DNA from: a virus
Virus record (IMG/VR): IMGVR_UViG_3300027963_000048
Coordinates: 1-64,000 of that record
Direction: 5' to 3' (one strand)
DNA length: 64,000 nt
The position numbers were made by a program, and so were the translations under genes. The notes under the pieces were generated by a model. That model had not been told where the DNA came from. It did no database searches and worked only from the letters and a program-made list of their open reading frames with translations. How positions within the stretch are numbered: position 1 is the first letter of the stretch; each line of letters starts with the position of its first letter. This document shows, piece by piece, positions 5,875 through 62,468 of the stretch.

Positions 5875-5882
5875 GAGTGGCT

Positions 5883-22000: not shown

Positions 22001-22235
22001 GATGGAAGAAGACGAAGATGAAGAAGAAGATGAGGGCGTAGCTGAAGACAACGACATCACCAGTCCCGCTCATAACAGCTACAAGGGTCTACTGAATCAA
22101 GATCCTCGACAAGACGTTGAAGTGAAAATGCCACATAAAAACAAGGGCGATCAAGAAGAAGGATTTGGTGGCACCAGGTCCTTGAAGAAGATCGACAAAA
22201 AGGGTAACACTCCTAATGTCAAATTCGAGGAATAA
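19011..22235 (+). CDS. large acidic prohead core/scaffold-like protein (1075 aa)
   Basis: Between portal and protease (the T4 gp67/gp68 position); many LxE/IxE sites, Pro/Ala linker, acidic repeats. Confidence 0.6.
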   Translation: MSVKKSEPVKIDSRKFLSIINDSAQSKIAFFEDRVKEIGKSLSKDYRLAALQPSDLVFEDVNSNEYFIANHSKNNGRIEISNIRPVEIYDNEKKQLYFESCLKLVNAIEENDQKEMGNAFSRMKAQRFSSRIIPEHGYVVGRDGISRKVNVVEGATIAAKVKRQIVEAVVDSLRDKVVVENNTVVSAYFNDGEPVNLPVTKWAGRKLIAKNMRETAKDAYLSPGFQNRIAKIAKQITEGKVAGAVSFIKPFLLENEEFTLLTKKELHKLVESTLATKAVFNQQLCEDVATLVYRTNLKVNRDTILNEWMRIGKFCEHPTLIENVHKLEESRKFEASYDCFLQMLFEAISNREVAAEALATTLDSLKTRTPRISESNDLSSKLASLVSRLRSKNVDDNAINEAEDLIATIQEELSAQDTLQDYDSMPGAQEAQGAQEPAAPPAPQAPVITINSPLISIGGQPVGQAGGDQDLAGLGLDDMGAEAAIPDLGAAPAAGAPPATDDFEMPPASPQAAPAAQPAQAPAQAGQAPARPGMPRSQPRQPGLPESRNRFGSALNESRPVHPEMQATGKRKPKRGGDHPEQLAEDRYFYADDVSIEGLNAYGNQTIPEDRVALVSNYMKGIKEGSEAHRLVKACRKAGVMVSESDIGSAIEQVHDYDHSTESDSKNADHDVMAEIDAIHHEIDSMHDRIDSIEDDSDEVDSEVGGLEDDESMMDSEVGGFEDEESMIDSEESEDEESTIDSEIEELEDEESTIDSEIEELEDDNDDELPEPEEGMAESQFKFPTAKKKRGMKSYAPRDNKRGPVAEGAIKWLRKQSDAVLGEARGVKFILDHGNHDPDFLPALLSEDGEIQIPMPKQLHEDAYALADRNQVSHRLHQYILRNVTVLRPISESEDTEINQTVAEIQRNADGGLSINVTDPSITVHNSGSEMAPVDGVAAELPAPDEATDDSMPDFGGNELDELEEEGEDEEMEEDEEEGEDEDEEMEEDEEEGEDEEMEEDEDEEEDEGVAEDNDITSPAHNSYKGLLNQDPRQDVEVKMPHKNKGDQEEGFGGTRSLKKIDKKGNTPNVKFEE
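21111..21300 (+). repeat. five ~42-nt (14-aa) tandem repeats, DSE(V/I)xxLEDEES(M/T)(M/I)
   Basis: ga(t/c)tctgaa units start at 21111, 21153, 21195, 21231 and 21273. Confidence 0.85.
21890..22040 (+). repeat. Glu/Asp repeat, about three copies of EEEGEDEEMEED
   Basis: Repeated gaagaagaaggcgaagacgaggagatggaag-like units. Confidence 0.8.
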
Positions 22236-22239
22236 TCCA

Positions 22240-22965
22240 ATGCAGAGTAGAACGACGGTGAGAAGCGTGGCTTTGAACCGCCGACTAATCGCTGAGACCG
22301 GCGCTATCCCTGCCGGTCTTCGGTTAATCCGCGATACAATGCCATTTGAACCACTCGATACAAAAATGACCGTGAACGAAGACGCTCATGGTCGAGAAGT
22401 CCATGTGATGCGAGTCAAGGGCCTCTTTCAAATGGGCGATCTTAGCAATGCTAACGGTCGTTATTACTCCACTAGAGAAGTGCTAGTACCAGCGGTACAG
22501 AGCATCCAAGAAGATGTCTCCGGCCGAGCGGTGATGGGAGAATTTGATCACCCAGCTGACGCAAAAATCCATCTAAATAATGTTAGCCATCTCATCACTA
22601 ACATTTGGATGGAAGGCCAAAAAGTTTACGGTGAAGCTGAAATTCTACACCGTTTACCAATGGGCGCCTGCTTACGTGGTCTATTCGAGCACAAAGTACG
22701 TGTCGGCATCAGCAGCCGCGGCGTCGGCGATATGGAGATGATCGAATCGGGTGGACAGCAACTCTATCGAGTTATGCCTGGATACACCTTCGTAACTTGG
22801 GATGCCGTCGCTGAGCCTTCTGTCTCTGGAGCCATTCTACATAACATACAGGAAGGCCTTTATAAAAAGGTCAACGCTGTCAAAAAGATGAAACCGCAAT
22901 TGCGACCAGAGACTTACCAAAAGACCTTGGTTGAAGAAATAAACAAGTATTTTGGCATTAAGTAA
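22240..22965 (+). CDS. prohead core protease (T4 gp21-like)
   Basis: NANGRYY, GEFDHP (His), GISSRGVG (Ser), WDAVAEPS (Asp). Confidence 0.95.
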   Translation: MQSRTTVRSVALNRRLIAETGAIPAGLRLIRDTMPFEPLDTKMTVNEDAHGREVHVMRVKGLFQMGDLSNANGRYYSTREVLVPAVQSIQEDVSGRAVMGEFDHPADAKIHLNNVSHLITNIWMEGQKVYGEAEILHRLPMGACLRGLFEHKVRVGISSRGVGDMEMIESGGQQLYRVMPGYTFVTWDAVAEPSVSGAILHNIQEGLYKKVNAVKKMKPQLRPETYQKTLVEEINKYFGIK

Positions 22966-27553: not shown

Positions 27554-27561
27554 TATAAATA
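27554..27561 (+). promoter_or_regulatory. TATAAATA, exact T4 late-promoter consensus, upstream of the scaffold/capsid genes
   Basis: Exact 8-mer in an AT-rich gap about 55 nt before ATG 27616; could be chance. Confidence 0.4.
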
Positions 27562-30042: not shown

Positions 30043-30174
30043 ATGAAACTGTCTATTATTTTAGAGGCCAGACTTAATAAATTATGGCTAGACAAGCAAT
30101 CGGGTAAAGGCAATCCGATAATCGACAGAATCATAGCGGTTGATCCTACTGGGGGTGAATATTATTTGTGGTGA
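30043..30174 (+). pseudogene. truncated fourth copy of the 50.5-55.2 kb paralog family
   Basis: Translates MKLSIILEARLNKLWLDKQSGKGNPIIDRIIAVDPTGGEYYLW*, matching the paralog N-termini. Confidence 0.85.
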
Positions 30175-30672: not shown

Positions 30673-30724
30673 ATATACAGTATGACCTTTCCGCTAACAT
30701 TTAATGGTGCCACATAGGTGTATC

Positions 30725-31426
30725 ATGAGACTTAAAGACATTTGTGAAAGTGGTTTATCGAGGACACACAGCGGCATGACACAGCATGATTGCGCAATAA
30801 TAACAGCACACAGACAAAACCCGTGCGATTTAACTGCTTGCGCAGCTGACGTTACAGCTGTTGAGAAACTTAAGCAGCGCAATATCGATACGATTATGCA
30901 TAATAAAAGCGGAGAAATAGCTATAAACGATAGGTATGAATTTATCAAAAATTATGGCGGACTTTATAGCGAAATCAATAAAGTCAATAATAGAGATCTT
31001 AAGGCAGTTTTGCGGCAACACGGATGTGGCGTCACTGAGGTTGATGGATCATTTACCGAAAACTTCGGTACATCCAAAGCAGTCGATGTTAGAGAAGATA
31101 GCATGTTCGTGGTAAATCTTAAAGATGACCCAGATTTCAAAAATCTGATTATACAGTTAGGCAAAGAATATTGTCAAGATTCTGTGTTGTTAATTGATAA
31201 AGGCACAGATAAAGCATATTTGTACGGCACTAATAAAAGCGGTGAATTTCCTAAGCTTGACCAAGAGATGTACGTTGGCTCATGGCTTGGCGGTCATGGT
31301 GGGCAGTTCCACACTAGAGTGGATGGGCGACCCTTTGTTTTCCGAGAAGAGAATTTATCGCGCAATGCTGCATGGTGTGTCTCTCTTATTATTGATTACA
31401 GGAAGAAAAATAATCTAGCATATTGA
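30725..31426 (+). CDS. putative SAM lyase (T3 SAMase family)
   Basis: IITAHR, EINKVNNRDLKAVLR, DGSFTE, VREDSMFV, LGKEYCQDSVL, FHTRVDGRPF align in order with T3 SAMase motifs recalled from memory. Confidence 0.7.
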   Translation: MRLKDICESGLSRTHSGMTQHDCAIITAHRQNPCDLTACAADVTAVEKLKQRNIDTIMHNKSGEIAINDRYEFIKNYGGLYSEINKVNNRDLKAVLRQHGCGVTEVDGSFTENFGTSKAVDVREDSMFVVNLKDDPDFKNLIIQLGKEYCQDSVLLIDKGTDKAYLYGTNKSGEFPKLDQEMYVGSWLGGHGGQFHTRVDGRPFVFREENLSRNAAWCVSLIIDYRKKNNLAY

Positions 31427-48845: not shown

Positions 48846-49109
48846 ATGAAACTAAATCGGATAATAGAAGACAGTAACTTCAATTCAGTCCAACCGGCTG
48901 GAGTAAATTCATGGGCTGGGGCCAAGATGGCACAAGATATCATGGATCCAGAATTACACACGCCCGATAACGAACCCACAGACGTTAACCTATCATCACC
49001 GGGTGCAGAAGAGACTGATCTACTCACTACCAGCATTGATGATACAGAAAAAGCGATGGATACCTTCTCATGGATGATCCCAACCTTCAAGGATCCAACG
49101 GTAAAATGA
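48846..49109 (+). CDS. small hypothetical protein with MKLNRIIED leader
   Basis: 87 aa; ATGA-coupled to the next gene. Confidence 0.6.
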   Translation: MKLNRIIEDSNFNSVQPAGVNSWAGAKMAQDIMDPELHTPDNEPTDVNLSSPGAEETDLLTTSIDDTEKAMDTFSWMIPTFKDPTVK

Positions 49110-50495: not shown

Positions 50496-52172
50496 ATGAA
50501 ACTTGCACTTATTCTAGAGGCGAAGCTTAACCGCCCTTGGCTCGAAAAACAGCTCGGTAAAGATAATCCAGCTGTTCAAAAAATCGTGAACACTGATCCA
50601 ACCGAAGGTTCATATTACCAATGGTTGGCATCTTTGTACAAGAAGCGCGGATCAGATGACTTCTTAACTCGGGAATTACGCGCAGACATCGACGAATGGG
50701 ATCGCAATAAACAAGCATTGAAAAATCTTGAAATCAGCAGTGACTTAAACGGCAAGGACTTGACGTACTTGGCGGACAATCTAGAATCATTAAGGTACGA
50801 TAGGGCTTTGAGAGCGTCTACAGGCTTAGGCAGCGGTGTCTATCACCTCAGTAAAGATTATCCAGGCGCTAAAATATTACTGAATGACGGACAGTATATT
50901 CTGTTCGAGATAGCGGGCAAAGACGCAGCTTCGATTGATAGTCTTGAGCGACTTGGGATGGGCACGTCTTGGTGTACTAGAAAAGGCAGTAATATCAGTG
51001 GGGCTGCGCAGCGATATCTAAAATCACGCACGCAGTATGTTCTATATAGGGATAAAAAACCTCTATATCAATTCGATGATAAAGACTTCATGAATGCTAG
51101 AAATGAAAATGTTATCCCTGAGCGTGATGCCGCTTCGAAGATCCTTGATGCCATGGGATATGCGTGTAATGAAGCATTGATGGTGGCTCAGATAGCCTAT
51201 GGCGATCCGAAATCTGTCAATATGACGCAAGACATGGTCAATAAGTACAAGCAAGGTGTATACCGTTTCGATGGAGTTACCGGTTTTCAACGCATTCCAG
51301 CGTTGGAAGCGTTTATCAAGTCAGACATGCACGAATACATCTTGTACGCCACCCAAATTCTAAAAAGGCGCGTGCCGGAAATCGAGGAATGGTTCATTAA
51401 TAATAACAATAAGTTTAGATCCCATACACAGCGCTACTTTACTGACCACTTGACTAACTACCTGTTATCATGCTGCAAATTTGAGGAATGGCCGGAGGGT
51501 GAAGAACTGCTGAAGGAGAATTTGGCTGCATATACACGTTATTTTGTGCAACGCCGCACTCAACCCAACGTGTTAATAGAACGTTCGCCTGAATTGGAAA
51601 AATGGCTGTTAGCCGCCGTTAATTTGGTACCCGTGGATTTTGTAGAAGATGGCAATCTAAATCTGATATTAAATTACCTATGGGACCTCAAAGTTGGAGA
51701 ATGGCCGGAAGGTGAGAAAAGACTCCTTAACAGTGCTAGCTTAGAGGGTTTACGGTATGCTATACACGTACACAAACGTTCCATAGCCGTAGAGAATTGG
51801 CTGGCGGCAGAGTGCTCAATCTTCCATGTCAAGGATTACGTAGCCCATGTGACGGATGGTAAACCGATTCCAGATTTCGAAGATAAAGCCATAGCGGCTA
51901 TGAAGTCCTCTTTAGCAACTAAGCCGCGTGATGGACAGTATCCGTATCCGGAACCTGTTTTCGCAGCGAGGTACGCACTTGAGGTATTAAAGCGACGGTG
52001 GCCTGCTGCTGAAAATATAATCTCGCTTGGTCGGCCTAACCATCCAGACATTGAAGCGTATTTTAAAGAATTCAATTATGCCATGGGTCATCAAGGCTTA
52101 ACTAACCAACCGTCAGGACGTACAGGAATGCCCGGCCAAAAGCCATGGGCTCTGTACAGCGAATCAAAGTAG
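50496..52172 (+). CDS. paralog 1: MKLxLILEA leader, GTxWCT (PcfJ-like?) domain, degenerate helical repeats
   Basis: DPTEGSYYQWL, DLNGKDL, LGMGTSWCTR, WPEGE-type repeats. Confidence 0.8.
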   Translation: MKLALILEAKLNRPWLEKQLGKDNPAVQKIVNTDPTEGSYYQWLASLYKKRGSDDFLTRELRADIDEWDRNKQALKNLEISSDLNGKDLTYLADNLESLRYDRALRASTGLGSGVYHLSKDYPGAKILLNDGQYILFEIAGKDAASIDSLERLGMGTSWCTRKGSNISGAAQRYLKSRTQYVLYRDKKPLYQFDDKDFMNARNENVIPERDAASKILDAMGYACNEALMVAQIAYGDPKSVNMTQDMVNKYKQGVYRFDGVTGFQRIPALEAFIKSDMHEYILYATQILKRRVPEIEEWFINNNNKFRSHTQRYFTDHLTNYLLSCCKFEEWPEGEELLKENLAAYTRYFVQRRTQPNVLIERSPELEKWLLAAVNLVPVDFVEDGNLNLILNYLWDLKVGEWPEGEKRLLNSASLEGLRYAIHVHKRSIAVENWLAAECSIFHVKDYVAHVTDGKPIPDFEDKAIAAMKSSLATKPRDGQYPYPEPVFAARYALEVLKRRWPAAENIISLGRPNHPDIEAYFKEFNYAMGHQGLTNQPSGRTGMPGQKPWALYSESK

Positions 52173-52185
52173 GCACGGAGATCAC

Positions 52186-53649
52186 ATGAAACTATCACTC
52201 ATACTAGAGGCTAAACTTAATCGCCCCTGGCTCGAAAAACAGCTCGGTATAGATAATCCAGCTGTTCAAAAAATCGTAGACACCGACCCAACTGGCGGAT
52301 CTTATTACAAATGGTTAACTGCGCTTTATCAAAAGTCGCAATCCGATGATTTTCTCACGCCCGAATTAAAAGCCGACATCGGAGAATGGGCCAATAACGC
52401 AAGAGCTATCAAAAGTGCAGGATTAAGCTCAGACTTGAACGGTAAAGATCTCGCATACTTCTATGACGTGCTAGCAAAAATGCGGCAGTATAAAGCCATT
52501 AAAGCCTCACACACTAAAAATAGTGGGGCCTATTATTTATTCAATAATTATCCAGGGGCCGAAGCTATTTATAATGACGGCAATTATATCATGTTTAAAG
52601 TCGAAGGCAAGAACGAAGAATCGATAGACAGCTTGCAGAAACTCGGAATCGGAACCGGATGGTGCACCAGGCTAGGCGGCGATGTGGAGGGTGCCGCTGA
52701 AGAATACTTATCTGATACGCAATATGTGTTGTATAAAAATGGTGAGCCTATCTGTCAATTCAGTAGACAAGACTTTAAAGATGTGCGTGATGAAGAATAC
52801 AAGCCACCTGCTGATGTGTTACGATTAATACTTAAAGTGGTCGGCCCAATTAATGATCAATTAAAGACGCTAGAGATAGGACAAAGGATAGCTGAATCAA
52901 ACAACTTCGCCGATGCATCACCCGAAGACCTGTGTCGCTATGCTGTGGCCATGAAACAGCGGTGGCCAGAAGCTGAGCCAATCATTAAAACATCACCAAA
53001 GTGGGCCCGAGAATACGCATTAAACGTCTTAGGGGAAACGTGGCCTGACGCCGAACCGTATATCATGACAGACCCTCAGTCTGCCGTGGTTTATGCTATA
53101 CATCTAAAGGGTCGATGGCCGGAAGCTGAAAAATATATCAAGCAAGATCCCGGATATGCTATACTATACGCTAGAAAATTATTTAATAAAGGCGAACGAT
53201 TTCTTGAAGCCGAGCCGTATATCGAAAAGGACGCTCGCATGGCGTTCGAATACGCCCAAAGAATCATAAAAGGTGAATGGCCAGACGCAGAAAAGTATAT
53301 CATGCAGGATCCTCAGGTGGCCTACAATTATGCTGCTTACGTGAGGGAAGACCGCTGGCCAGCAGCTGAACCCATCATAATGCGAGATCCTCAGGTAGCA
53401 TACAAGTATGCTTATGCTTTCATAAATGGTGAATGGCCAGAGGCGGAACCATACATAATGACTGAACCATATACAGCATATGCTTACGCTAGGTTTCTAA
53501 AAAGGGAGCGATGGCCAGAGGCCGAACCGTACATCAAGAAGAATCCCGAGGCCGCTAAACTTTATTTTGATTGGGTTAATAAGGATATCAGCAGAGGTGC
53601 GGACGCCTATGATGACTCGTCGAGTTGGGTTGATGCACGAAATATATAA
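52186..53649 (+). CDS. paralog 2: same N-domain plus 8 regular WPxAE helical repeats
   Basis: LGIGTGWCTR; repeats such as RWPEAEPYIxxDPxxAxxYA. Confidence 0.8.
   Translation: MKLSLILEAKLNRPWLEKQLGIDNPAVQKIVDTDPTGGSYYKWLTALYQKSQSDDFLTPELKADIGEWANNARAIKSAGLSSDLNGKDLAYFYDVLAKMRQYKAIKASHTKNSGAYYLFNNYPGAEAIYNDGNYIMFKVEGKNEESIDSLQKLGIGTGWCTRLGGDVEGAAEEYLSDTQYVLYKNGEPICQFSRQDFKDVRDEEYKPPADVLRLILKVVGPINDQLKTLEIGQRIAESNNFADASPEDLCRYAVAMKQRWPEAEPIIKTSPKWAREYALNVLGETWPDAEPYIMTDPQSAVVYAIHLKGRWPEAEKYIKQDPGYAILYARKLFNKGERFLEAEPYIEKDARMAFEYAQRIIKGEWPDAEKYIMQDPQVAYNYAAYVREDRWPAAEPIIMRDPQVAYKYAYAFINGEWPEAEPYIMTEPYTAYAYARFLKRERWPEAEPYIKKNPEAAKLYFDWVNKDISRGADAYDDSSSWVDARNI
52960..53570 (+). repeat. 8 tandem ~25-28 aa repeats, (R/E/T)WP(E/D/A)AE(P/K)(Y/I)IxxDPxxAxxYA
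   Basis: Counted directly in the translation; one copy reads RFLEAE. Confidence 0.9.
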
Positions 53650-53691
53650 GCGCTAGAGAAAGCCAAACAATATAGAGCCATCAAAGCCTAA
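53650..53691 (+). pseudogene. intergenic remnant of another paralog
   Basis: Translates ALEKAKQYRAIKA*, matching ALEKIREHKAIKA and LAKMRQYKAIKA in paralogs 3 and 2. Confidence 0.65.
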
Positions 53692-53770
53692 ACCACCACG
53701 GCCACTAGCCGCTTCCTGCGCTCATATCATAGCAAATTTAACATGTACCCAATTTACAGGTATTCATAAA

Positions 53771-55177
53771 ATGAAGTTATCACTTATCCTAGAGGCGAAG
53801 CTTAATCATACTTGGCTCGAAAAACAGCTCGGTAAAGATCACCCAGCAGTGCAAAAAATCGTAGACACGGATCCGACCGGTGGCTTTTATTATGAATGGT
53901 TGGTGCAAAGATTTAAACAAGCGAACACAGACCAATTTCTAACACCGCAATTGCGAGATTCAATCGTCGAATGGGATAGAAACAAGCAAGTGCTGCGTAA
54001 TCTAAATATCGATGCTGACTTAAATGGTAAAAATTTAGCTTATTTTAATGATGCTTTAGAAAAGATCCGAGAACATAAGGCCATTAAAGCATCATCAGTG
54101 CGCGGTTCAGGCGTGACGCACATGGGCACGGAGTACCCAGGCGCAAAGGTCATATATGATGATGGTCAGTATGTTCTCTTTAAAATCGAAGGTACGAGCC
54201 CAGAGGCAATCGACAGCTTAGAGCGATTGGGAGTGGGTACTCGTTGGTGCACGAGAAGAGGCGGTAGAGTTAATAAGGCAGCTGAACATTTAAGCACAGA
54301 CACACAGTATGTGCTTTACAAAGATAAAAAGCCATTATATCAATTCGACTCTAGTGAATTTAAGGACACTCACAATCTTCCCGAATATAGCATACCAGAC
54401 AAAGCGTCAGCGCTCATAATGTTAGACTATGTGGGACCTATCAACGATACTCTAAAATTCGCCGCTGCAGTTTACGAATACGATACCTCAATGCTGTCTG
54501 AAGTGCCTGAAATTCTTGCTCGTTACCTGAGTGGAAACTTACCGACTTTCATTCAACCATCTGAAGTGATTGAGCAGTATCTATTACAACAATGCGAAAA
54601 TGGCGAGGACGAAGAGGCAGCTTACCATCTCATCGATTATGCAAAACACTACAGAGTAGGCCGTTGGCCAGCGGCAGAGCCGTATTTGATACATGATCCT
54701 AAAACGGCATATGCTTACGCTGATAGAGTCATCGGTGGTCGATGGCTCGAAGCTGAATCTATCATTGCCAAAAGCGCTACTGCCGTTAGCTACGCCATTG
54801 CCTTCTTCGGGGGTGACAGATGGCTTGAAGCCGAACCATATCTGCTTAACGAAGGTGAGGTAATACATGCCATACTCTATGCTGGTAAAGTATTAGAAGG
54901 GCGCTGGCCAGCTCTAGAGCATCGTATCGCAAAAATGGATCAGCCGCTGTTTGCCATGATGGAATACACAAGGTTGGTACTCAATCGCCTTCCAAATGGC
55001 CCAAAGTCGCTGCCTGAATTTGAGCAAGCTGTGATCAACGATCCTTACAAAGCATATAATTATGCTAGGCGTGTTATTAACGCAAGGTGGCCAGAAGCAG
55101 AACCTATAATTATGGCGTCGAAATATGCAAATGATTACCAACACTGGCTAACAGCCAAAGAGGCGCTACCGTTTTAA
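53771..55177 (+). CDS. paralog 3: same N-domain plus WPxAE/WLEAE repeats
   Basis: LGVGTRWCTR; RWPAAEPYL, RWLEAE repeats. Confidence 0.8.
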   Translation: MKLSLILEAKLNHTWLEKQLGKDHPAVQKIVDTDPTGGFYYEWLVQRFKQANTDQFLTPQLRDSIVEWDRNKQVLRNLNIDADLNGKNLAYFNDALEKIREHKAIKASSVRGSGVTHMGTEYPGAKVIYDDGQYVLFKIEGTSPEAIDSLERLGVGTRWCTRRGGRVNKAAEHLSTDTQYVLYKDKKPLYQFDSSEFKDTHNLPEYSIPDKASALIMLDYVGPINDTLKFAAAVYEYDTSMLSEVPEILARYLSGNLPTFIQPSEVIEQYLLQQCENGEDEEAAYHLIDYAKHYRVGRWPAAEPYLIHDPKTAYAYADRVIGGRWLEAESIIAKSATAVSYAIAFFGGDRWLEAEPYLLNEGEVIHAILYAGKVLEGRWPALEHRIAKMDQPLFAMMEYTRLVLNRLPNGPKSLPEFEQAVINDPYKAYNYARRVINARWPEAEPIIMASKYANDYQHWLTAKEALPF

Positions 55178-55221
55178 TAGTCGATCAATAAATAAAGCAC
55201 ACGCTACTGCAGGATTTGATT

Positions 55222-56484
55222 ATGACTGATGCCGCAATTACCGTTATCCTTAACGGCTATAAACGACCACACGTGTTAGCCGAGCAGTTGCAAGCTATCG
55301 AAAGTCAGACAATCAAGCCCGTTCAAATTATGTTTTGGAAAAATGCCAGCGACGCCACCTTTGACCAAGACCTAATTGCCAGATGTCAATCATTTACCAG
55401 TAGCGTAAATGTGGGTGTATGGGGACGATTTGCGTTAGCCCTGCTAGCGGAAGGCGAATACGTTTGCGTCTTCGATGACGACACAGTTCCGGCCCCAAGA
55501 TGGCTCGAAAACTGCGTGACCTCGATGAAAAAACGAAGGGGGCTCTTCGGTACCATCGGTGTCGTTTTCGACACAGACCAAGGCTACGATGGACAAATCA
55601 GGCGCTTCGGCTGGGATACTCCCATTGACGATATTAAACAAGTAGACATAGTCGGTCACAGTTGGTTCTTTGAAAAGAAAATGCTAGAATATTTCTGGCG
55701 AGAAATCCCAGACCGTAAATTTTACCTATGCGGCGAAGACATGCACTTCTCATACATGCTGCAAAAATATGCGAACTTGCCTACTTTAGTCCCACCGCAT
55801 CCAGCTCAAGATCAATCACTCTACGGTTCAATTCCGGAAAAAGCGATGAAATATGGGATGGAGCCGGTCGCAATTTCACATGGCACCAATTGCAACGTTA
55901 AATTCAACGATTACCTGTTCAAGATACGAAGTGGAGGTTTCAAGCTGCTAAAAGATAATTACCAAAGACCATACTTAATAACACAATTTAAATTTATAGA
56001 TGTTTACGATGCTACGGTCTCAGATGGAGCGCCAGACTGGCGTACCCCATATGAATTGGGCCTTGCTTATAAATTCCTTGCTACGCTAGCACGCCTTAAT
56101 ACTACCATGTCAGTAAAGTATAATAGTGAGTCGATGTCGCTGGTAAACAAGCATCCGTTCCCACTGGATACTGAAAAACCAACCATTTACGTTGACGTGA
56201 AGGGAATAGATCTAAGCCAAGCGGACTGCATTGAGCGCTTGCGCAGTAAGATCGACCTGATTAATCACGGTGGTTACTATATTGGTTCAAGCCTTTTTAA
56301 CGGAGCTACGGAACATCCCGAAAATGGCCAGCACATCGATATGCTTAAACAGTTAGAAGCTATGGTTGGGGCACCGGTTGAAGGCAAGAATTCTATCATC
56401 AAGCTAAATGGGTCAAATAGCACAAATCCAGACACAAATCATATGTTAGATTCGATCTTGTTCCTCATTATAAAGAAGATCTAA
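55222..56484 (+). CDS. GT2-family glycosyltransferase with an extra C-terminal domain
   Basis: ITVILNGYKRP, YVCVFDDD, GEDMHFS; C-terminal ~170 aa possibly a decayed methyltransferase (LINHGGYY). Confidence 0.8.
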   Translation: MTDAAITVILNGYKRPHVLAEQLQAIESQTIKPVQIMFWKNASDATFDQDLIARCQSFTSSVNVGVWGRFALALLAEGEYVCVFDDDTVPAPRWLENCVTSMKKRRGLFGTIGVVFDTDQGYDGQIRRFGWDTPIDDIKQVDIVGHSWFFEKKMLEYFWREIPDRKFYLCGEDMHFSYMLQKYANLPTLVPPHPAQDQSLYGSIPEKAMKYGMEPVAISHGTNCNVKFNDYLFKIRSGGFKLLKDNYQRPYLITQFKFIDVYDATVSDGAPDWRTPYELGLAYKFLATLARLNTTMSVKYNSESMSLVNKHPFPLDTEKPTIYVDVKGIDLSQADCIERLRSKIDLINHGGYYIGSSLFNGATEHPENGQHIDMLKQLEAMVGAPVEGKNSIIKLNGSNSTNPDTNHMLDSILFLIIKKI

Positions 56485-57450
56485 CAGTTTACCGGCTGCG
56501 AAACCATCACCGTAAGGTGACGGTAACACAACGCGATACTGTAATTTAGCTGAAAATAATTCATGTAATTGGCGTGGACTAGGACACAAGAATGCATGAG
56601 TATCGATACCCTCTACGCGTTCCGTACTCGCACGACATACAATCGCTGTCTTCTTGAGAAATGAAGCCTCCTCCTGTATCCCACCAGAGTCGGTAATCAC
56701 CAGCTTGCATCTCGCCAGCAAAGCAAGGCAGTCGTCATGAGGCAAAGGGTCCACAGCGTGCACTTTTCTTAAGATGCTCACGTGCTTGGTTACACTAGGG
56801 TTATGATGCGCTGGTAATATGAATTTAAGCTCCGGGTAAGCTAAGGCTAGATTTTCGAAAGCCTTAAACCATGCTTCTATATGCTGCAAGTTCTCACGAC
56901 GATGCATGGTAATTAGCACTTCATCACCATAAGTGACGCTAAGATCCCTAAGATTATCGAGTGCCGTATTACCGATCACTGGTGCTAGAGCGTAAATCTT
57001 CTCATTACGTAGGTTGGTGGCAGCCCGTTGCGTAGGACAAAGATTGATCGTAGCTATTCGACTGATCATCTGCCTATATGCTTCTTCCGGATATGGACGC
57101 TTCAGATCGTACGTTCTAAGCCCAGCTTCTAGATGCAAAAGGATCTTGTTGCGATGAAACGCAGCCAGAGCGCAAGTTAATGCAGTAGCCGTATCGCCCT
57201 GCACAATCACATGGCTAATACCGTTGAAGATCTGGTCAGTCATAGCTCCAATTGAGCTAACTATTGCATCAAGTCTGTTATCAGCATACGATACTGAAAG
57301 CACGTGGTCAGCTGGTTCGGTCACCTCTAGATTATAGTGTTGGCCAATATATAATGTCCTGTAGGAAATGCTACGGGCTTTGCATTCCTTGATGATCGGT
57401 TTAAGCTTAATATATTCAGGTCTGGTGCCGTAGCATAGTAAAATCGGCAT
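56446..57450 (-). CDS. wecB: UDP-N-acetylglucosamine 2-epimerase
   Basis: GTRPEYIK, GQH, VQGDT, HLEAGLRT, PEE, TMHRREN, TDSGGIQEEA, PYGDG. Confidence 0.95.
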   Translation of the reverse strand: MPILLCYGTRPEYIKLKPIIKECKARSISYRTLYIGQHYNLEVTEPADHVLSVSYADNRLDAIVSSIGAMTDQIFNGISHVIVQGDTATALTCALAAFHRNKILLHLEAGLRTYDLKRPYPEEAYRQMISRIATINLCPTQRAATNLRNEKIYALAPVIGNTALDNLRDLSVTYGDEVLITMHRRENLQHIEAWFKAFENLALAYPELKFILPAHHNPSVTKHVSILRKVHAVDPLPHDDCLALLARCKLVITDSGGIQEEASFLKKTAIVCRASTERVEGIDTHAFLCPSPRQLHELFSAKLQYRVVLPSPYGDGFAAGKLLDLLYNEEQDRI

Positions 57451-57451
57451 G

Positions 57452-58522
57452 TTATTCCTCTAAAGCGTATTCAAACTTCCAGCCATACATCTTTCTCAAT
57501 TGATCTATGACCTGCTGACGTTCTACTATAGTGACCTTCGTGCCCTTAGCGGCGATTGCGTTAGCAAAAGCGAGACGCTGCGAATTATCTAATATAGTTG
57601 ATTCATCTTTAAAGGTCACACGGTCCATCACAATGGACGTTTGGTCCTTAGCCTCGTCAACCATAAACATCAAGTGCGAGTCGTTTGCTTGATCTATGGC
57701 TACGTTTAGTTCAGCCGAGATTTTCACATCCTCAGAAGCTTTAATATAAGCTTTATTGTCGCGAGGTAAGCACGGTCCACCATAGCCAAATCCGTACTTA
57801 AGACAATGGTGATTTATTCTTCTGTCGTCGCCTATAGCATTTAGTACCACATCAGAGTTGCCTTTATATCTAGATACCATATCGCCTACTTTATTAGCAT
57901 ACGCTATCTTCATCGTCAGGAAAACATTGGTTGCTAATTTGGTAATTTCAGCCTCGGCAAACGACATCATCTTTACGGACGGCTTATTGAGACAAATGCT
58001 GCGATGTAATTCTGCAATTATGGACATCGACCTTGTGTCGGTGCCCCCGATCAACACCACGTCTTGGTTCTGCTGGTCTCGAATGATCGACCCCTGAGCG
58101 ATGAATTCAGGGTTATAAATGAGATGGTTATGATCCACTAGATTTAGCACAGTAGCGCAATAGCCTGGCATAACAGTAGAATTAATGGCTATTACTTTAT
58201 CACGTAGCCCTAAGGCTCGGATATCACGCAGCGCCTGCGTGATCAAAGTGTGATCGTAAGACCCATCAGGCAAGCTGGGTGTGGGCAGGACTATGAAGAT
58301 GACATCTGCCTCTGCGATGTGAGAGAGGTCATCTCCGATGATCAACCTTGAATCGGCAAGGTAACTCTCTACCATTGGCTCCGCAGTGTGTAGTGCTTTG
58401 GTCCTGATCGCCTCGACCAATTTAGCATCTGTGTCACATGCATAGATTTGGTGGCCCGCTTTGTCAAGATTAAGGGCAAGACATAAGCCTAATTTCCCAA
58501 CACCTATGATGCCGATCTTCAT
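57452..58522 (-). CDS. UDP-glucose/GDP-mannose family nucleotide-sugar dehydrogenase
   Basis: IGIIGVGKLG, LPTP, NSTVMPG, NPEFIAQG, AEITKLATN, GYGGPCLPRD. Confidence 0.93.
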   Translation of the reverse strand: MKIGIIGVGKLGLCLALNLDKAGHQIYACDTDAKLVEAIRTKALHTAEPMVESYLADSRLIIGDDLSHIAEADVIFIVLPTPSLPDGSYDHTLITQALRDIRALGLRDKVIAINSTVMPGYCATVLNLVDHNHLIYNPEFIAQGSIIRDQQNQDVVLIGGTDTRSMSIIAELHRSICLNKPSVKMMSFAEAEITKLATNVFLTMKIAYANKVGDMVSRYKGNSDVVLNAIGDDRRINHHCLKYGFGYGGPCLPRDNKAYIKASEDVKISAELNVAIDQANDSHLMFMVDEAKDQTSIVMDRVTFKDESTILDNSQRLAFANAIAAKGTKVTIVERQQVIDQLRKMYGWKFEYALEE

Positions 58523-58533
58523 AGCCAGCCTCA

Positions 58534-59142
58534 CTAGCTCACAAGACGCTGTATGGCCGAATGGACCTGGTCGGTCCAGCGATCGCCACGCACATCTGTT
58601 ATGTGTTCAATATATACATCTTGGTGTCTGCTCGCCATCTGCGGATTGTTAGTTAATAGTAATAGCTTACTATTAGGCCGACTGTGTATGAAATATTCCC
58701 ATAATTTCACTCGATCGTATGTTACAACAAATGGTAAAACTGACCAGCTTGATTTGGCATAATCGTTATATGGATCTTCGTCTATAGCGTGTCTACAGAA
58801 CAATATTTCATCTGTGCTGTAGAATACGCTGAGCAAACGGTGTAATCTTCTCTGATACGTGGTTCTGACCTCGTCGTTCTCTACCCACCATGGTTCAACG
58901 CGTGCATATTCATGGAACAAGAAGGCATCATTGTCTGGAGACAATAGAAACCCGTCACGCAGGTAACGCATATTAAAATCGAAGAAATGCTTGCCGCCAG
59001 ACGCAATACATTTGGTGACGAAGGATTGAGAAGTGATATTCCAGTCAAACGGGTACGCTGGTTGGTTAAACTTCCTAATTACAGTGGTTAACATGCAGCC
59101 GCCGTAGCCGCCTAGATTTACTATTATCACATTTTGATCCAA
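58534..59142 (-). CDS. DUF1796-like protein
   Basis: NLGGYGGC, YPFDWN, FHE, YQRRLHRL. Confidence 0.65.
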   Translation of the reverse strand: MDQNVIIVNLGGYGGCMLTTVIRKFNQPAYPFDWNITSQSFVTKCIASGGKHFFDFNMRYLRDGFLLSPDNDAFLFHEYARVEPWWVENDEVRTTYQRRLHRLLSVFYSTDEILFCRHAIDEDPYNDYAKSSWSVLPFVVTYDRVKLWEYFIHSRPNSKLLLLTNNPQMASRHQDVYIEHITDVRGDRWTDQVHSAIQRLVS

Positions 59143-59984
59143 TTATCTAAATAAAGCCTACGATGCAATAAATCTGGCTCAGTACCCATGAAGTAATCTT
59201 TTGGCGCTACAATTGATTTTACGGGTTTGGCTAAATAACCAACCCATAGACCAAAAGTGGTGAATGGCGATAAGATGCTGCCATCACACAATTCCATTAG
59301 TTTAAAATCTTCAAGTGTGTTATTTCCGCTGGAAAAGATGAAATTATAACGATATTCTGCTAGGATCTGTTTTGCTGCAGTTAAATCACGGTCATGTTGG
59401 CCTTCCTTAACATCTCTTGACCCGCCAGCGAAGACGAAATAATCGGCATTACCGAAGTATTCGAAGGCTCTGTCTAGATAATTTTTCAATGGATCGCCCA
59501 TCATCACAGCTTCGCACGTATCTTTCTGTGGGCTCATGAATATGTTATCGCCCAGGCGTAAATGCAGGCTAACGACTTTACTGTGCTTGCGTGACGGCGC
59601 TATTGCTTCAAACTTATGATGTGCGCTGGCGAACGTGTTAGAGTTAGCGTTAAGGCCTACACACTTCCTTATCTGAGGCAGATGCTGTTCGAAGTAGCGT
59701 ACATCTTGAAAATATCCAGCGATATCGACATTGTCAGGTGTTTGAAAAAATCCGTCAGTATATGTGCTAGCTTCTTCTACGGTGCAACCGGTTTTGACTT
59801 CTTTAAATTCTTCTGGGATGTTTAGATGCTTCAGTAGGCATTCTTGATTGTGCCATATTTTGGTGTCGGTGGGCGGTAAACACATTTCGTAGTTATTCGT
59901 CAGGGCTAAGCTTTTGAGTGCAGCGTACTGGAACAACTGGTTACCAAATCGACCCATAGTGCCGATTCTAGAAAACGTTATCAT
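59127..59984 (-). CDS. GT11 alpha-1,2-fucosyltransferase-like glycosyltransferase
   Basis: GRFGNQLFQYA, GYFQ, LHLRLGD, DFKLM..C, TTFGLWVGYL. Confidence 0.9.
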   Translation of the reverse strand: MITFSRIGTMGRFGNQLFQYAALKSLALTNNYEMCLPPTDTKIWHNQECLLKHLNIPEEFKEVKTGCTVEEASTYTDGFFQTPDNVDIAGYFQDVRYFEQHLPQIRKCVGLNANSNTFASAHHKFEAIAPSRKHSKVVSLHLRLGDNIFMSPQKDTCEAVMMGDPLKNYLDRAFEYFGNADYFVFAGGSRDVKEGQHDRDLTAAKQILAEYRYNFIFSSGNNTLEDFKLMELCDGSILSPFTTFGLWVGYLAKPVKSIVAPKDYFMGTEPDLLHRRLYLDNWIKM

Positions 59985-60625
59985 ATGGTCCTCATATTTT
60001 TAAAAACAGTGAACTCAGTTAAATCTCGATAGCCATTGATCTCTTGGCTATCAGGAACATGCTCGGGATAATTGTGCATCAGCTCTAAGCCCCGGGCTGC
60101 GACAGAAGGCGCCATGTACATGTTCCAGCCACAGAACGTGATATCATCTTCCTTGTAGAATTTCTCGGACCGTCCTTCATAACGCGCTTTTTTAAGCCAA
60201 TTAACGGCATCTATATTATCAGTCAATATCATGCCGCCTTTGCCAATATTCAACTGCTTCTTAATATGAAAACTCAAGCAGTAAAACTGGCCTGCATTAT
60301 ACATTTTCGAGGTGAAACGTTTAGCACTGTCGTGGATAGGATACGGTTTAAGCTGGTATTGGCCAGTCCAGTGGTTTACGCTCCCACTCTTATCAAAGAC
60401 TACTTCACCACCGGCGTGGATTATCGACATCGGCACGCTGAGGTAAGTCTTTGCTGGAATGGTGACAGTTTGCACATTCAAGTACTTGCAGCAAAGGAAT
60501 ATCGCATTTGTACATGAATCTACGGAGACTGCATAAGGTGCTCCGGTATAATGTGCCACTTCATCTTCAAACATCTCAACGATTTTAAAAGGGTTATGCT
60601 TCGATAGATTAGCGGGCATCATCAC
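59981..60625 (-). CDS. DegT/DnrJ/EryC1/StrS PLP aminotransferase, short form
   Basis: FEDEVAHYTGAPYAVSVDSCTNAI, DSA, LSFHIKK, GKGGMILTD, GWNMYM; only 214 aa. Confidence 0.85.
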   Translation of the reverse strand: MMMPANLSKHNPFKIVEMFEDEVAHYTGAPYAVSVDSCTNAIFLCCKYLNVQTVTIPAKTYLSVPMSIIHAGGEVVFDKSGSVNHWTGQYQLKPYPIHDSAKRFTSKMYNAGQFYCLSFHIKKQLNIGKGGMILTDNIDAVNWLKKARYEGRSEKFYKEDDITFCGWNMYMAPSVAARGLELMHNYPEHVPDSQEINGYRDLTEFTVFKNMRTI

Positions 60626-61019
60626 GTTCCAGGATGTAATACTTCTGTTTAAAGCCAGCCTTTAGGAACAGCTGAAGACTAGCCTCGTTATCAACCTTCA
60701 CCTTTGCGTAAAGTCCTTTGCGATTTTTTAGGTATTCGTTGATCATGAACGACGCTATGCCTTTGTTCTTGTGCTCGTGCACAACGCAAACCCTCAGGTC
60801 GCCATCTATGTCCCCCACGAAACCAACAGGCTCATCAGCATCTGTGACACAAATCTTGTAATCTTGATGATGATCCATCATATATGCTGTCTGCTGGTCT
60901 GGAGTAATTTGGACTTGCTGTATAAACCCTTGGGCATTGCGTGGATCGTTCCTTAAGCTTCGGACGAAACCCCAATAATCAAGAGAGCAATTCACCAGTT
61001 TATACTTTACCATATGCAT
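60609..61019 (-). CDS. GNAT N-acetyltransferase (PseH-like)
   Basis: LRNDP..ITPDQQ, HKNKGIA, NEASLQLFLKAGF. Confidence 0.85.
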   Translation of the reverse strand: MHMVKYKLVNCSLDYWGFVRSLRNDPRNAQGFIQQVQITPDQQTAYMMDHHQDYKICVTDADEPVGFVGDIDGDLRVCVVHEHKNKGIASFMINEYLKNRKGLYAKVKVDNEASLQLFLKAGFKQKYYILERDDAR

Positions 61020-61777
61020 AGCTTCCTCATATCATCGTGCGTTTCACCTTTATGTATATGGAGGTAGCCCCTATTGCATGTAAGTCCAAGTAGATGATTC
61101 ATCGTAGTGCCAACATTAATGTAAGTGTTCTGTGGATTAACTTGATGTAGTCTATGAATGAGCATTTGAGTCAAGCTAGACGCTGAGAAGATGAAAAGAT
61201 GATTCGTTATTTGAGACTCCTGCACCCATTGGGTCATTTCCTCAATAAGTGGCTGATCATTCACTATACAGTTAGTGCCTACTTTAAACCATTTCACAGG
61301 CTTAACTGTAGGATGCAGATTGGCGCTGCCGTTAGCTATTAAAACTAACGTGGGATGTGCAAGGATCAACGGCAATATGTGGTCTAAAAAATACGGATAA
61401 TTGCCATTTACAAGAAGATTAGCCCAAGTCCAATATTTAGTCTCTGCACACAAGGTATCGAAGAACATCCTGTTCTCGTGGCCCACGCAACATTTGCATG
61501 ATATACCTTTATAGTACTCTGGCGCATCGTACTTAAATGAAGCTATCAACTTGTCGACTATCTGTCGGTGAGCCACCGGATCTACGTCTTTGTGATCCTC
61601 TGGAGCCCAGGCAGCATGATACCTCTGATCGCCAACTATCGACTCATCTGCGCTAAGCCTTAAACGCTTTCCTTGCATGATAAACATTTCGCCATCGGAG
61701 TAGCGCGTGAATGCAAAGTTTTCACCATTTAGCATCTTGGTATGCAAATGGGTCAAATCTGACCTAAATTCTTTCAT
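61007..61777 (-). CDS. GT-D fold (DUF1792-like) glycosyltransferase
   Basis: FAFTRYSDGE at the N-terminus, YINVG near the C-terminus. Confidence 0.7.
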   Translation of the reverse strand: MKEFRSDLTHLHTKMLNGENFAFTRYSDGEMFIMQGKRLRLSADESIVGDQRYHAAWAPEDHKDVDPVAHRQIVDKLIASFKYDAPEYYKGISCKCCVGHENRMFFDTLCAETKYWTWANLLVNGNYPYFLDHILPLILAHPTLVLIANGSANLHPTVKPVKWFKVGTNCIVNDQPLIEEMTQWVQESQITNHLFIFSASSLTQMLIHRLHQVNPQNTYINVGTTMNHLLGLTCNRGYLHIHKGETHDDMRKLCIW

Positions 61778-62468
61778 GGTGTTTACCGTTCATCAGTACC
61801 AGCACAGGTTGATATGGCGTCATCTCCACCGTATTTATCGTCTGCTCCCACCAATTCGCCGTAAGGCCGAATTGATCCAGAATATTCCACCGTTCACATA
61901 ATTTTATCAGCCTTTTTCCGTAGATGCGGTGCACGTTGAAAACTGTAAGATCCCTACCGACTGGAACAGCTAAAAAATGCAAACCATTGGGCCTAACTAG
62001 GTCTACCAATTTTGTCATAGTCTTTAAATCGCCGTTAGCATCAATAGGATCGCCATATCTTCCAAGGCCATCATGTTCCACGGAAGAGATATTAAGGCAA
62101 GCGTCGAAGCGTCGGTTTAGGCTTTCGGGCTTCACATACTTAATGGCCTCATTGACAAATGGCCGATCGCCATATTCTGAGACGGTGACAGTAGCTGCTC
62201 CAAATACAAGGCAGATAGCCTCATACCATGGGTTAGCTGAACCTATTAGTAGAACATCCATGCCAACTATAGGGTACTGCCTTAGTGCTTGATAGAGCCA
62301 TGCGTCAGTTTCGCCGTAATAATAAGTCGCTCCGGTTCGGACCGCATCCATGTATTCGATAAATCTGGCTGGTGTATAGTTTAATGAATGGTCTAGCTTA
62401 GAGTCATCCCTCACGTTAAATGCTATAGGCTCATCTAGTTGAGCCAGATATTGGTTTAAAGCACTCAT
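61764..62468 (-). CDS. DUF268 methyltransferase-like protein
   Basis: LIGSANPWYE, SSVEHDGLGRYGDPIDANGD, AVPVG.D...FNVHRIYG. Confidence 0.85.
   Translation of the reverse strand: MSALNQYLAQLDEPIAFNVRDDSKLDHSLNYTPARFIEYMDAVRTGATYYYGETDAWLYQALRQYPIVGMDVLLIGSANPWYEAICLVFGAATVTVSEYGDRPFVNEAIKYVKPESLNRRFDACLNISSVEHDGLGRYGDPIDANGDLKTMTKLVDLVRPNGLHFLAVPVGRDLTVFNVHRIYGKRLIKLCERWNILDQFGLTANWWEQTINTVEMTPYQPVLVLMNGKHHERI

Follow-up and report, generated by a model that had tools for sequence, protein, structure and literature searches.

In this study, we asked why a phage would maintain three adjacent paralogous genes (genes 1–3) that begin with one common domain and continue into differing repeat arrays, and where their products act. 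The genes occupy positions 50496–55177 of the window, i.e. the whole 64,000-nt stretch of DNA analysed here, which constitutes the first 64 kb of the 115.6-kb linear viral record IMGVR_UViG_3300027963_000048. On balance we lean, a little beyond an even call, towards reading them as capsid-targeted, injected effector paralogs of a T4-like jumbo phage. Each consists of a short leader, an N-domain carrying the motif GTxWCT and a C-terminal repeat region:

50496..52172, + strand: gene 1, 558 aa, with leader, GTxWCT N-domain, irregular WPxxE helical region and conserved C-terminal tail ...GRTGMPGQKPWALYSESK
52186..53649, + strand: gene 2, 487 aa, with leader, GTxWCT N-domain and the most regular 26-aa WPEAEP array (7 anchors)
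53771..55177, + strand: gene 3, 468 aa, with leader, GTxWCT N-domain and 5 WP/WLxxE repeats

The source is a T4-like myophage, an uncultured freshwater jumbo phage. The window encodes a T4-type terminase, a Gp20 portal (E 1.3e-73) and a Gp23 capsid protein (E 2.9e-80), and the record is 32% complete according to CheckV, which implies a genome of roughly 360 kb. Among 2600 matching phage records, none shares more than 39% identity with the capsid protein, and an uncultured 595-kb phage comes closest. DNA of the array was recovered from several freshwater metagenomes of different studies, with no RNA dataset among the sequencing runs listed as containing it.

The three genes are co-directional, each starting at its first possible start codon, and their N-domains (~215 aa) align free of gaps over columns 1–175, with pairwise identities of 125/214, 126/213 and 119/214 (56–59%). 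All motifs by which the original prediction, made from the sequence alone, had delimited a shared module of ~210 aa (DPT.G.YY.WL, DLNGK.L, SL..LG.GTxWCTR, TQYVLY) are present in this alignment. The C-regions are just 25–38% identical, with many gaps. We additionally could confirm the predicted identical 22-nt stretch, TGGCTCGAAAAACAGCTCGGTA, which occurs in exactly three copies on the + strand and in none of 100 shuffles:

50538..50559, + strand: copy 1, codons 15–22 of gene 1, encoding WLEKQLG
52228..52249, + strand: copy 2, codons 15–22 of gene 2
53813..53834, + strand: copy 3, codons 15–22 of gene 3

Synonymous sites are saturated among the paralogs (proportion of synonymous differences, pS, 0.73–0.93), except in codons 1–25 (pS 0.38–0.56). 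At the related phage locus L005, the 22-mer carries 5 mismatches while the encoded peptide is unchanged, and the identity is therefore probably best read as intragenomic gene conversion among the three 5' ends and not as a universal nucleotide signal. Only four N-domain matches were found in a genome search of the record, the fourth being truncated:

30043..30174, + strand: truncated fourth copy, leader and first ~43 N-domain residues with a TGA end, just downstream of the major capsid gene

The reading frame of this copy resumes past the TGA, and the relative P0016 has an 86-aa version; the copy represents a paralog in decay or else a short N-terminal module that stands on its own.

The feature that points to the capsid is the leader. 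In all three genes MKL(S/A)LILE is followed by Ala, which fits a prohead-protease L/I-X-E site, and the same phage encodes a protease of this type:

50496..50519, + strand: gene 1 leader MKLALILE, 8 codons, ending I-L-E before Ala9
52186..52209, + strand: gene 2 leader MKLSLILE
53771..53794, + strand: gene 3 leader MKLSLILE
22216..22965, + strand: T4-type prohead protease (Peptidase_S77, E 5.4e-18), presumably the leader-cutting enzyme
48846..49109, + strand: unrelated 87-aa open reading frame (ORF) with leader MKLNRIIE, first gene of the co-directional block holding genes 1–3

Among all ORFs of 40 aa or more in the 115.6-kb record, nine start with the pattern M[KR]L..[LIMV]x(1-2)E, compared with 0.16 on average and never more than 1 in 50 codon shuffles, and all nine matches stand 1–38 codons after the preceding stop. 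Besides genes 1–3 and the fourth copy at 30043, five of the nine are non-paralogous ORFs (30725, 48846, 66854, 68807 and 114496). Among these, 48846, 66854 and 68807 gave no family match, and 66854 and 68807 no relatives among viral contigs either; the leader of 30725 (MRLKDICE) is an internal Met of an ORF of the S-adenosylmethionine (SAM) lyase family and possibly a chance match. The ORFs 48846–49109, C1:66854–67654, C1:68807–69238 and C1:114496–end, which belong to no known family, are candidates for further capsid-loaded proteins. Across the N-domain family, described below, the strict leader stands at residue 1 of 23 of 46 representatives (15 of 38 without close family), and the domain follows the leader either directly or after up to ~150 residues.

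The structural models place the leader outside the confidently modelled fold. In the full-length AlphaFold model of gene 2 (predicted local distance difference test score, pLDDT, 88.5; predicted template modelling score, pTM, 0.67), pLDDT drops below 50 only at residues 1–8 and 472–487, and in the N-domain model residues 1–10 average 54 versus 89.3 overall. Combining the ORF statistics, the variable distance to the domain and the low pLDDT, we therefore describe the leader as a portable N-terminal tag, not as part of the fold.

The same observations bear on an alternative that we regard as rather improbable, namely that the proteins are never packaged, but are cytoplasmic host-takeover or anti-defence proteins made after infection, whose N-terminus would be the first element of the domain or would reflect a translation-initiation constraint. 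It would account for the location of the genes outside the head module and for the half of the representatives that have no leader, and it draws further support from the short helix modelled at residues 4–7 and from the reduced synonymous change in codons 1–25, which together with the identical 22-mer implies conservation at nucleotide level. However, neither a domain element nor an initiation constraint fits well with a leader that also opens non-homologous ORFs, varies in its distance to the domain and is modelled at pLDDT below 50, and the five differences in the related phage argue against a universal nucleotide signal. Unpackaged proteins would moreover be at odds with a homologue found in virions of phage PA5oct (see below).

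Packaging by way of a leader has a well studied precedent in T4. According to passages of PMC9026906 and PMC3012670, gp21 cleaves after L/I-X-E, a specificity originally recognised at a Glu-Ala bond, the 10 N-terminal residues of IPIII constitute a capsid-targeting sequence (CTS) that is sufficient for prohead loading, and the T-even internal proteins are diverse anti-defence proteins having the CTS alone in common. Genes 1–3 share with IPI, IPII, IPIII and Alt, as described there, a short propeptide ending in L/I-X-E, and both phages encode a gp21-type S77 protease; also alike are the unrelated cargo proteins sharing the leader only and the likely role in the first moments of infection. In contrast to T4, the leader has 8 and not 10 residues and another sequence, and the presumed cargo is ~460–550 aa long and made of a new domain and a solenoid instead of a small basic protein or ADP-ribosyltransferase (ART). 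The ejection-protein families of SPN3US and phiKZ (SPN3US gp53 and gp54), compared by description from passages of PMC5694885, are likewise paralogous head proteins with conserved N-termini bearing a prohead-protease motif, but their propeptides usually exceed 100 residues and end in A/S/G-X-E. A search for Peptidase_S77 in three related viral records gave no match, which is uninformative, as these records are 15–51% complete.

Virion presence is directly documented for one homologue. A search of BFVD, which gave 15 matches at E ≤ 1e-3, returned a 'Structural protein' of PA5oct (E 3.8e-5), and the family profile matched the genome of this jumbo Pseudomonas phage in one place, EST35_0205 (QCG76086.1; E 7.9e-35), with hhalign assigning family and protein a probability of 99.5% (E 2.5e-22) over 193 columns and with GTRWCT in place. 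The record annotates EST35_0205 as 'structural protein; ESI-MS/MS', and according to Table S5 of PMC7318152, it was detected in purified virions by 20 peptides with a coverage of 55.04%. The protein starts MKLFEVFTLYE, thus containing an L-F-E and an L-Y-E site within its first 11 residues. It has the homologous N-domain, GTRWCT and the MKL start in common with genes 1–3, whereas identity is only ~21%, regular WPEAEP repeats are absent from its C-terminal region, and it is a single copy at E ≤ 0.01 and not a tandem array. The PA5oct capsid precursor starts MSNRLFE and a small structural protein after the portal MKINDIITE, which is suggestive only; among the 47 PA5oct proteins of the first 150 kb detected by mass spectrometry, several head proteins carry an early L/V-x-E.

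The annotation of EST35_0205, its high peptide coverage and the location of its gene directly after a terminase-like gene would also suit head-internal structural or assembly proteins (of the core, the inner body or DNA condensation), with no host target and with repeats that bind virion parts or DNA. We judge this improbable, even though alpha-solenoids are common scaffolds and no enzymatic fold was recognised in the domain. Three diverged paralogs with varying repeat faces are rarely kept for structural parts, and relatives, detailed below, combine the domain with ART-PolyVal, whose enzyme type targets host proteins, or with ankyrin and leucine-rich binding repeats (by BFVD annotation), or carry it inside a 1732-aa polyvalent protein.

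In the N-domain, the motif lies at the same residues in each paralog:

50961..50978, + strand: GTxWCT motif of gene 1, residues 156–161
52651..52668, + strand: GTxWCT motif of gene 2, residues 156–161, in an ordered loop between helix 144–153 and helix 170–174
54236..54253, + strand: GTxWCT motif of gene 3, residues 156–161

A HMMER scan of 1.84 billion representatives retrieved 46 proteins at E ≤ 1e-3, of which 9 remain at E ≤ 1e-10 and 6 at E ≤ 1e-30; P0014 and P0015 each contain two domain copies within a single protein. The Trp-Cys pair, W159 and C160, is invariant across all 46 domain copies, followed by T157 (98%), T161 (96%), G124 and Q190 (91%) and G156, W43 and A170 (89%). The AlphaFold model of the domain, obtained with a 35-sequence alignment, consists of a helical subdomain (13–121) and a small alpha/beta subdomain in the order strands 125–130 and 134–139, helix 144–153, the ordered GTxWCT loop, helix 170–174 and strands 179–184, 187–192 and 197–199. 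For genes 1–3 and their relatives, Pfam, NCBIfam and PADLOC contained no informative family for the N-domain, PHROGs only the unknown-function families 11280, 28193, 31839, 25279 and 21376; PDB sequence and profile searches gave nothing under E 0.25, and neither blastn of the array nor tblastn of the N-domain matched any of 50,697 phage records. In a word-index search for longer fused forms, none of 448 candidates scored, which is weak evidence. The N-domain is thus a widespread, confidently folded module, unnamed in the curated libraries searched. Its Trp-Cys loop may be catalytic, ligand-binding or structural. No His is conserved at 70% or more among the 46 domain copies, and a papain-type mechanism, i.e. 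a papain-like Cys-His thiol enzyme, is therefore disfavoured.

The original prediction had called the domain loosely similar to PcfJ, a likeness that we could trace only faintly and that bears on whether the N-domain belongs, in divergent form, to the PcfJ superfamily and shares its activity. We hold this to be about an even call, and it is compatible with injected effectors. For residues 118–215, 26 of 30 named matches in the ESM Atlas fall into the PcfJ set at a borderline score of 0.90, and 13 among the 50 BFVD matches listed have a PcfJ-like annotation, with E values from 5.3e-4 to 6.7e-2; the Foldseek superpositions behind the latter, however, have a template modelling score (TM) of 0.26–0.28 and a root-mean-square deviation above 12 Å. 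An hhalign comparison restricted to the subdomain puts LGxGTxWCT..YL..YVvY on EGxxLxHCV..Ya..Ivf with Cys on Cys, but reaches just P 0.016 and a probability of 2.8%, which is insignificant, and full comparisons of the family with pCF10 PcfJ, a close PcfJ alignment and a diverse 9-phage PcfJ alignment gave 0.39%, 0.37% and 0.30%. The Pfam model of PcfJ (PF14284, gathering score 25 bits) matched neither genes 1–3 nor the six-frame translated own genome at E ≤ 1, nor any of 39 relatives at E ≤ 0.01. When nine PcfJ domains are aligned, the invariant columns E68, G69, H74, C75 and V76 spell E-G-x4-H-C-V, with I..R and T.E downstream, whereas the N-domain reads L-G-x-G-T-x-W-C-T, so that only G and C correspond and the invariant His before the PcfJ Cys is a Trp. 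What N-domain and PcfJ (of pCF10 and the PcfJ-like proteins of Herelleviridae) have in common is consequently a similar motif order round an invariant Cys and a widespread occurrence, for PcfJ in phages and conjugative plasmids. PDB searches yielded no solved PcfJ structure, and the literature searched on the PcfJ domain and PF14284 describes no mechanism. On pCF10 (L008, 15874–17984) the founding PcfJ gene overlaps by 10 nt with an upstream Cas9 inhibitor gene of the AcrIIA9 family, a context that suggests an anti-defence role for PcfJ and counts in favour of a shared activity.

The second half of each injected effector would be its repeat region. The paralogs differ in number and regularity of their repeats, as had been predicted, gene 2 having 7 W[PL]x.E anchors (spacing 26, 25, 54, 26, 26, 26), gene 3 having 5 and gene 1 having 4 that are irregular:

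51489..52085, + strand: degenerate repeat region of gene 1, residues 332–530
52963..53589, + strand: repeat array of gene 2, residues 260–468, modelled as a helical-hairpin solenoid
54665..55165, + strand: repeat region of gene 3, residues 299–465

Per-position entropies, determined for 45 repeat units with a length of exactly 26 aa in 17 family proteins, bear out the predicted pattern of a fixed framework with variable residues around AxxYA. W1 and E5 are invariant, P2, E3, A4, P6, I8, A15, Y18, A19 and R26 are strongly conserved, P12 is conserved, and entropy exceeds 3 bits at positions 13, 14, 16, 17, 20 and 21, a spacing (i, i+1, i+3, i+4, i+7, i+8) that corresponds to one helix face. In the full-length model of gene 2, short and long helices alternate, as in a helical-hairpin solenoid, for which no significant solved repeat class was found, the search returning just generic PUF/TPR-type rows at E > 0.08.

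Repeat regions change faster than the N-domain, and they do so by insertions and deletions. Identities of N-domain versus C-region are 0.94 versus 0.84 for P0008/P0009 and 0.86 versus 0.77 for P0006/P0007, and on metagenome contigs two sites, both within repeat regions, account for 6 of 6 insertions or deletions among the rows listed. At one of them, after 54847 in gene 3, runs X3 and X4 carry an in-frame insertion of 30 nt, whose ten residues are identical to those inserted in the relative P0005; at the other, a patch of ~30 nt in gene 1 (51613–51643) is rewritten in run X3. Around the same position, we observed a 35-nt segment of gene 1 (51611–51645), which corresponds to an insertion of 11–12 residues that P0003 does not have and which is unique in the 115-kb record; in runs X2 and X7 this segment occurs on short contigs with flanks unlike the window.

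Relatives of genes 1–3 display the same combination of a conserved domain with exchangeable partners. Two other huge-phage contigs likewise contain tandem members, a pair of neighbouring genes in L006 and a set of three in L007. L007 ORF1 joins the N-domain to WPE-type repeats and ART-PolyVal (38.2 bits, cut-off 31.2), and DUF4116 (PF13475) repeats, which are comparable in half-unit length, follow the same N-domain in L006 ORF2 (E 7.4e-17), L007 ORF2 (E 5.7e-6) and likewise P0048, while genes 1–3 gave no DUF4116 match at E ≤ 1. P0040 likewise combines ART-PolyVal with the N-domain, which in the polyvalent protein of 1732 aa lies internally, after ART-PolyVal, and other structural relatives are annotated in BFVD with ankyrin or leucine-rich repeats. 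The predicted fusion of a Cys-bearing domain to variable modules is hence found with WPE repeats, DUF4116, ART-PolyVal and, by BFVD annotation, ankyrin and leucine-rich repeats, and these architectures are effector-like. Passages of PMC5512222 (Iyer et al. 2017), on polyvalent proteins from conjugative elements and phages, argue that those bearing ART domains enter the host along with the phage DNA. The likeness to such proteins consists in the ART-PolyVal fusions of the relatives and in the logic, predicted in those passages, of injection with DNA, whereas genes 1–3 combine one conserved domain with repeats and not several disparate enzymatic domains; at least two disparate activities per polypeptide are found in L007 ORF1 and P0040, not in genes 1–3. 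Neither PcfJ, DUF4116 nor a conserved cysteine is mentioned in these passages.

We propose a model in which the MKL(S/A)LILE leader would load each protein into the prohead core, where the gp21-type S77 protease would cut after Glu8, at I-L-E|A. By analogy to the T4 internal proteins and Alt, and with a homologue in PA5oct virions, the mature proteins would then be ejected into the host together with the DNA. There the solenoid would bind its target via the variable helix face, while the N-domain, with its invariant Trp-Cys in an ordered loop, would act on or hold a target or ligand, the three paralogs possibly representing three specificities. The effector or host-takeover family expected by the original prediction gains from this, because a capsid-targeting-like leader and a virion-detected homologue now accompany it, whereas the retargeted catalytic activity proposed alongside stays putative.

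Several points weigh against capsid-targeted, injected effectors. Packaging, cleavage and ejection are steps that we infer for the proteins of genes 1–3, and 'structural protein' in PA5oct means presence in the virion only, not ejection. The L/I-X-E site is short and common by chance in any single protein, 23 of the 46 representatives have no leader, and the leader could be an N-terminal helix, as the full-length model places a short helix at residues 4–7, or a translation-level signal. Members in L006 and L007 start M-[STN]-W-[FY], unlike the leader, a start that fits a lineage-specific tag, though fitting is not proof. Genes 1–3 are located ~20 kb from the head-gene block, amid sugar-modification genes, and inspection by eye revealed no late-promoter signal shared upstream of them. 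No faster change of the C-region is seen in gene 1/P0003 (0.92 versus 0.91 for N-domain and C-region) or gene 3/P0005 (0.98 versus 0.99). Finally, the structure searches returned no structural neighbour of known function, and neither a conserved His nor another obvious catalytic partner for the Cys was found.

Proteins injected with the DNA act before phage gene expression and so decide whether host defences win. To our knowledge, apart from T4, P1, N4 and the phiKZ group, few such proteins are known, and for phages that are uncultured there is no way to predict any of them. While capsid-targeted internal proteins and polyvalent injected proteins are already known, new are a domain absent from the curated libraries searched, its fusion to a previously unnamed 26-aa solenoid, the tandem paralog arrays and a distinct leader on half of the representatives. 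If this leader is a capsid-loading tag, it would mark the whole injected set in freshwater jumbo phages and would be a ready tag for loading cargo into such capsids. The N-domain, paired with interchangeable binding repeats, is a good candidate where new activities in anti-defence or takeover are concerned. More tentatively, and with considerable doubt, we suggest that GTxWCT defines a new thiol-dependent or Trp-Cys ligand-capturing effector module that a large clade of T4-like and other huge phages delivers through the capsid and retargets by swapping solenoid, DUF4116, ankyrin or leucine-rich arrays, with MKLxx(I/L)xE as the clade-wide capsid-loading tag. If this holds true, the injected proteome of uncultured jumbo phages would be readable from sequence alone.

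The C-terminal ends of the family provided further observations. The gene 1 tail GRTGMPGQKPWALYSESK (window 52100–52172) recurs as GR.G.PGQK.WALYSES in P0004 and P0010, despite differing repeat arrays, and could represent another conserved signal at a terminus; for T4 Alt, passages on that protein describe processing of both ends. In members of L006 (3652–8003) and L007 (5239–12682), SWY/GWY-(K/A)-R-like motifs occur close to the C-terminus and in one case in mid-protein, which may be the terminal or processing signal of another lineage. Beyond the window, a 93-aa ORF at genome position C1:90917–91198 (L010) starts ...RDCVSTFNVGGQDRQVRI, resembling the C-terminal tail of P0006 and P0007, and may be the remnant of another paralog's tail.

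Regarding transcription, exact T4 late-promoter-like octamers TATAAATA are located at window positions 27554 and 32004 (+ strand), with none upstream of genes 1–3; they lie ~45–90 nt upstream of the ORFs 27604, just before the capsid gene, and 32094, of 1216 aa. A scan for sigma-70 promoters and terminators gave fewer sites than shuffles. The window additionally encodes ThyX, sigma-like proteins and many sugar-modification genes, as well as a class II ribonucleotide reductase split by an intein with a LAGLIDADG homing endonuclease (5877–10268, + strand). Adjoining the truncated fourth copy is the ORF of the SAM lyase family (30704–31426, + strand; Pfam E 2.1e-11), an enzyme type with anti-restriction function. 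Directly downstream of the array follows a dense sugar-modification cluster (55216–62468), comprising GT2 and GT11 glycosyltransferases, a UDP-GlcNAc 2-epimerase, a UDP-glucose dehydrogenase, a DegT aminotransferase, a GNAT protein and a DUF1796 papain-like protein.

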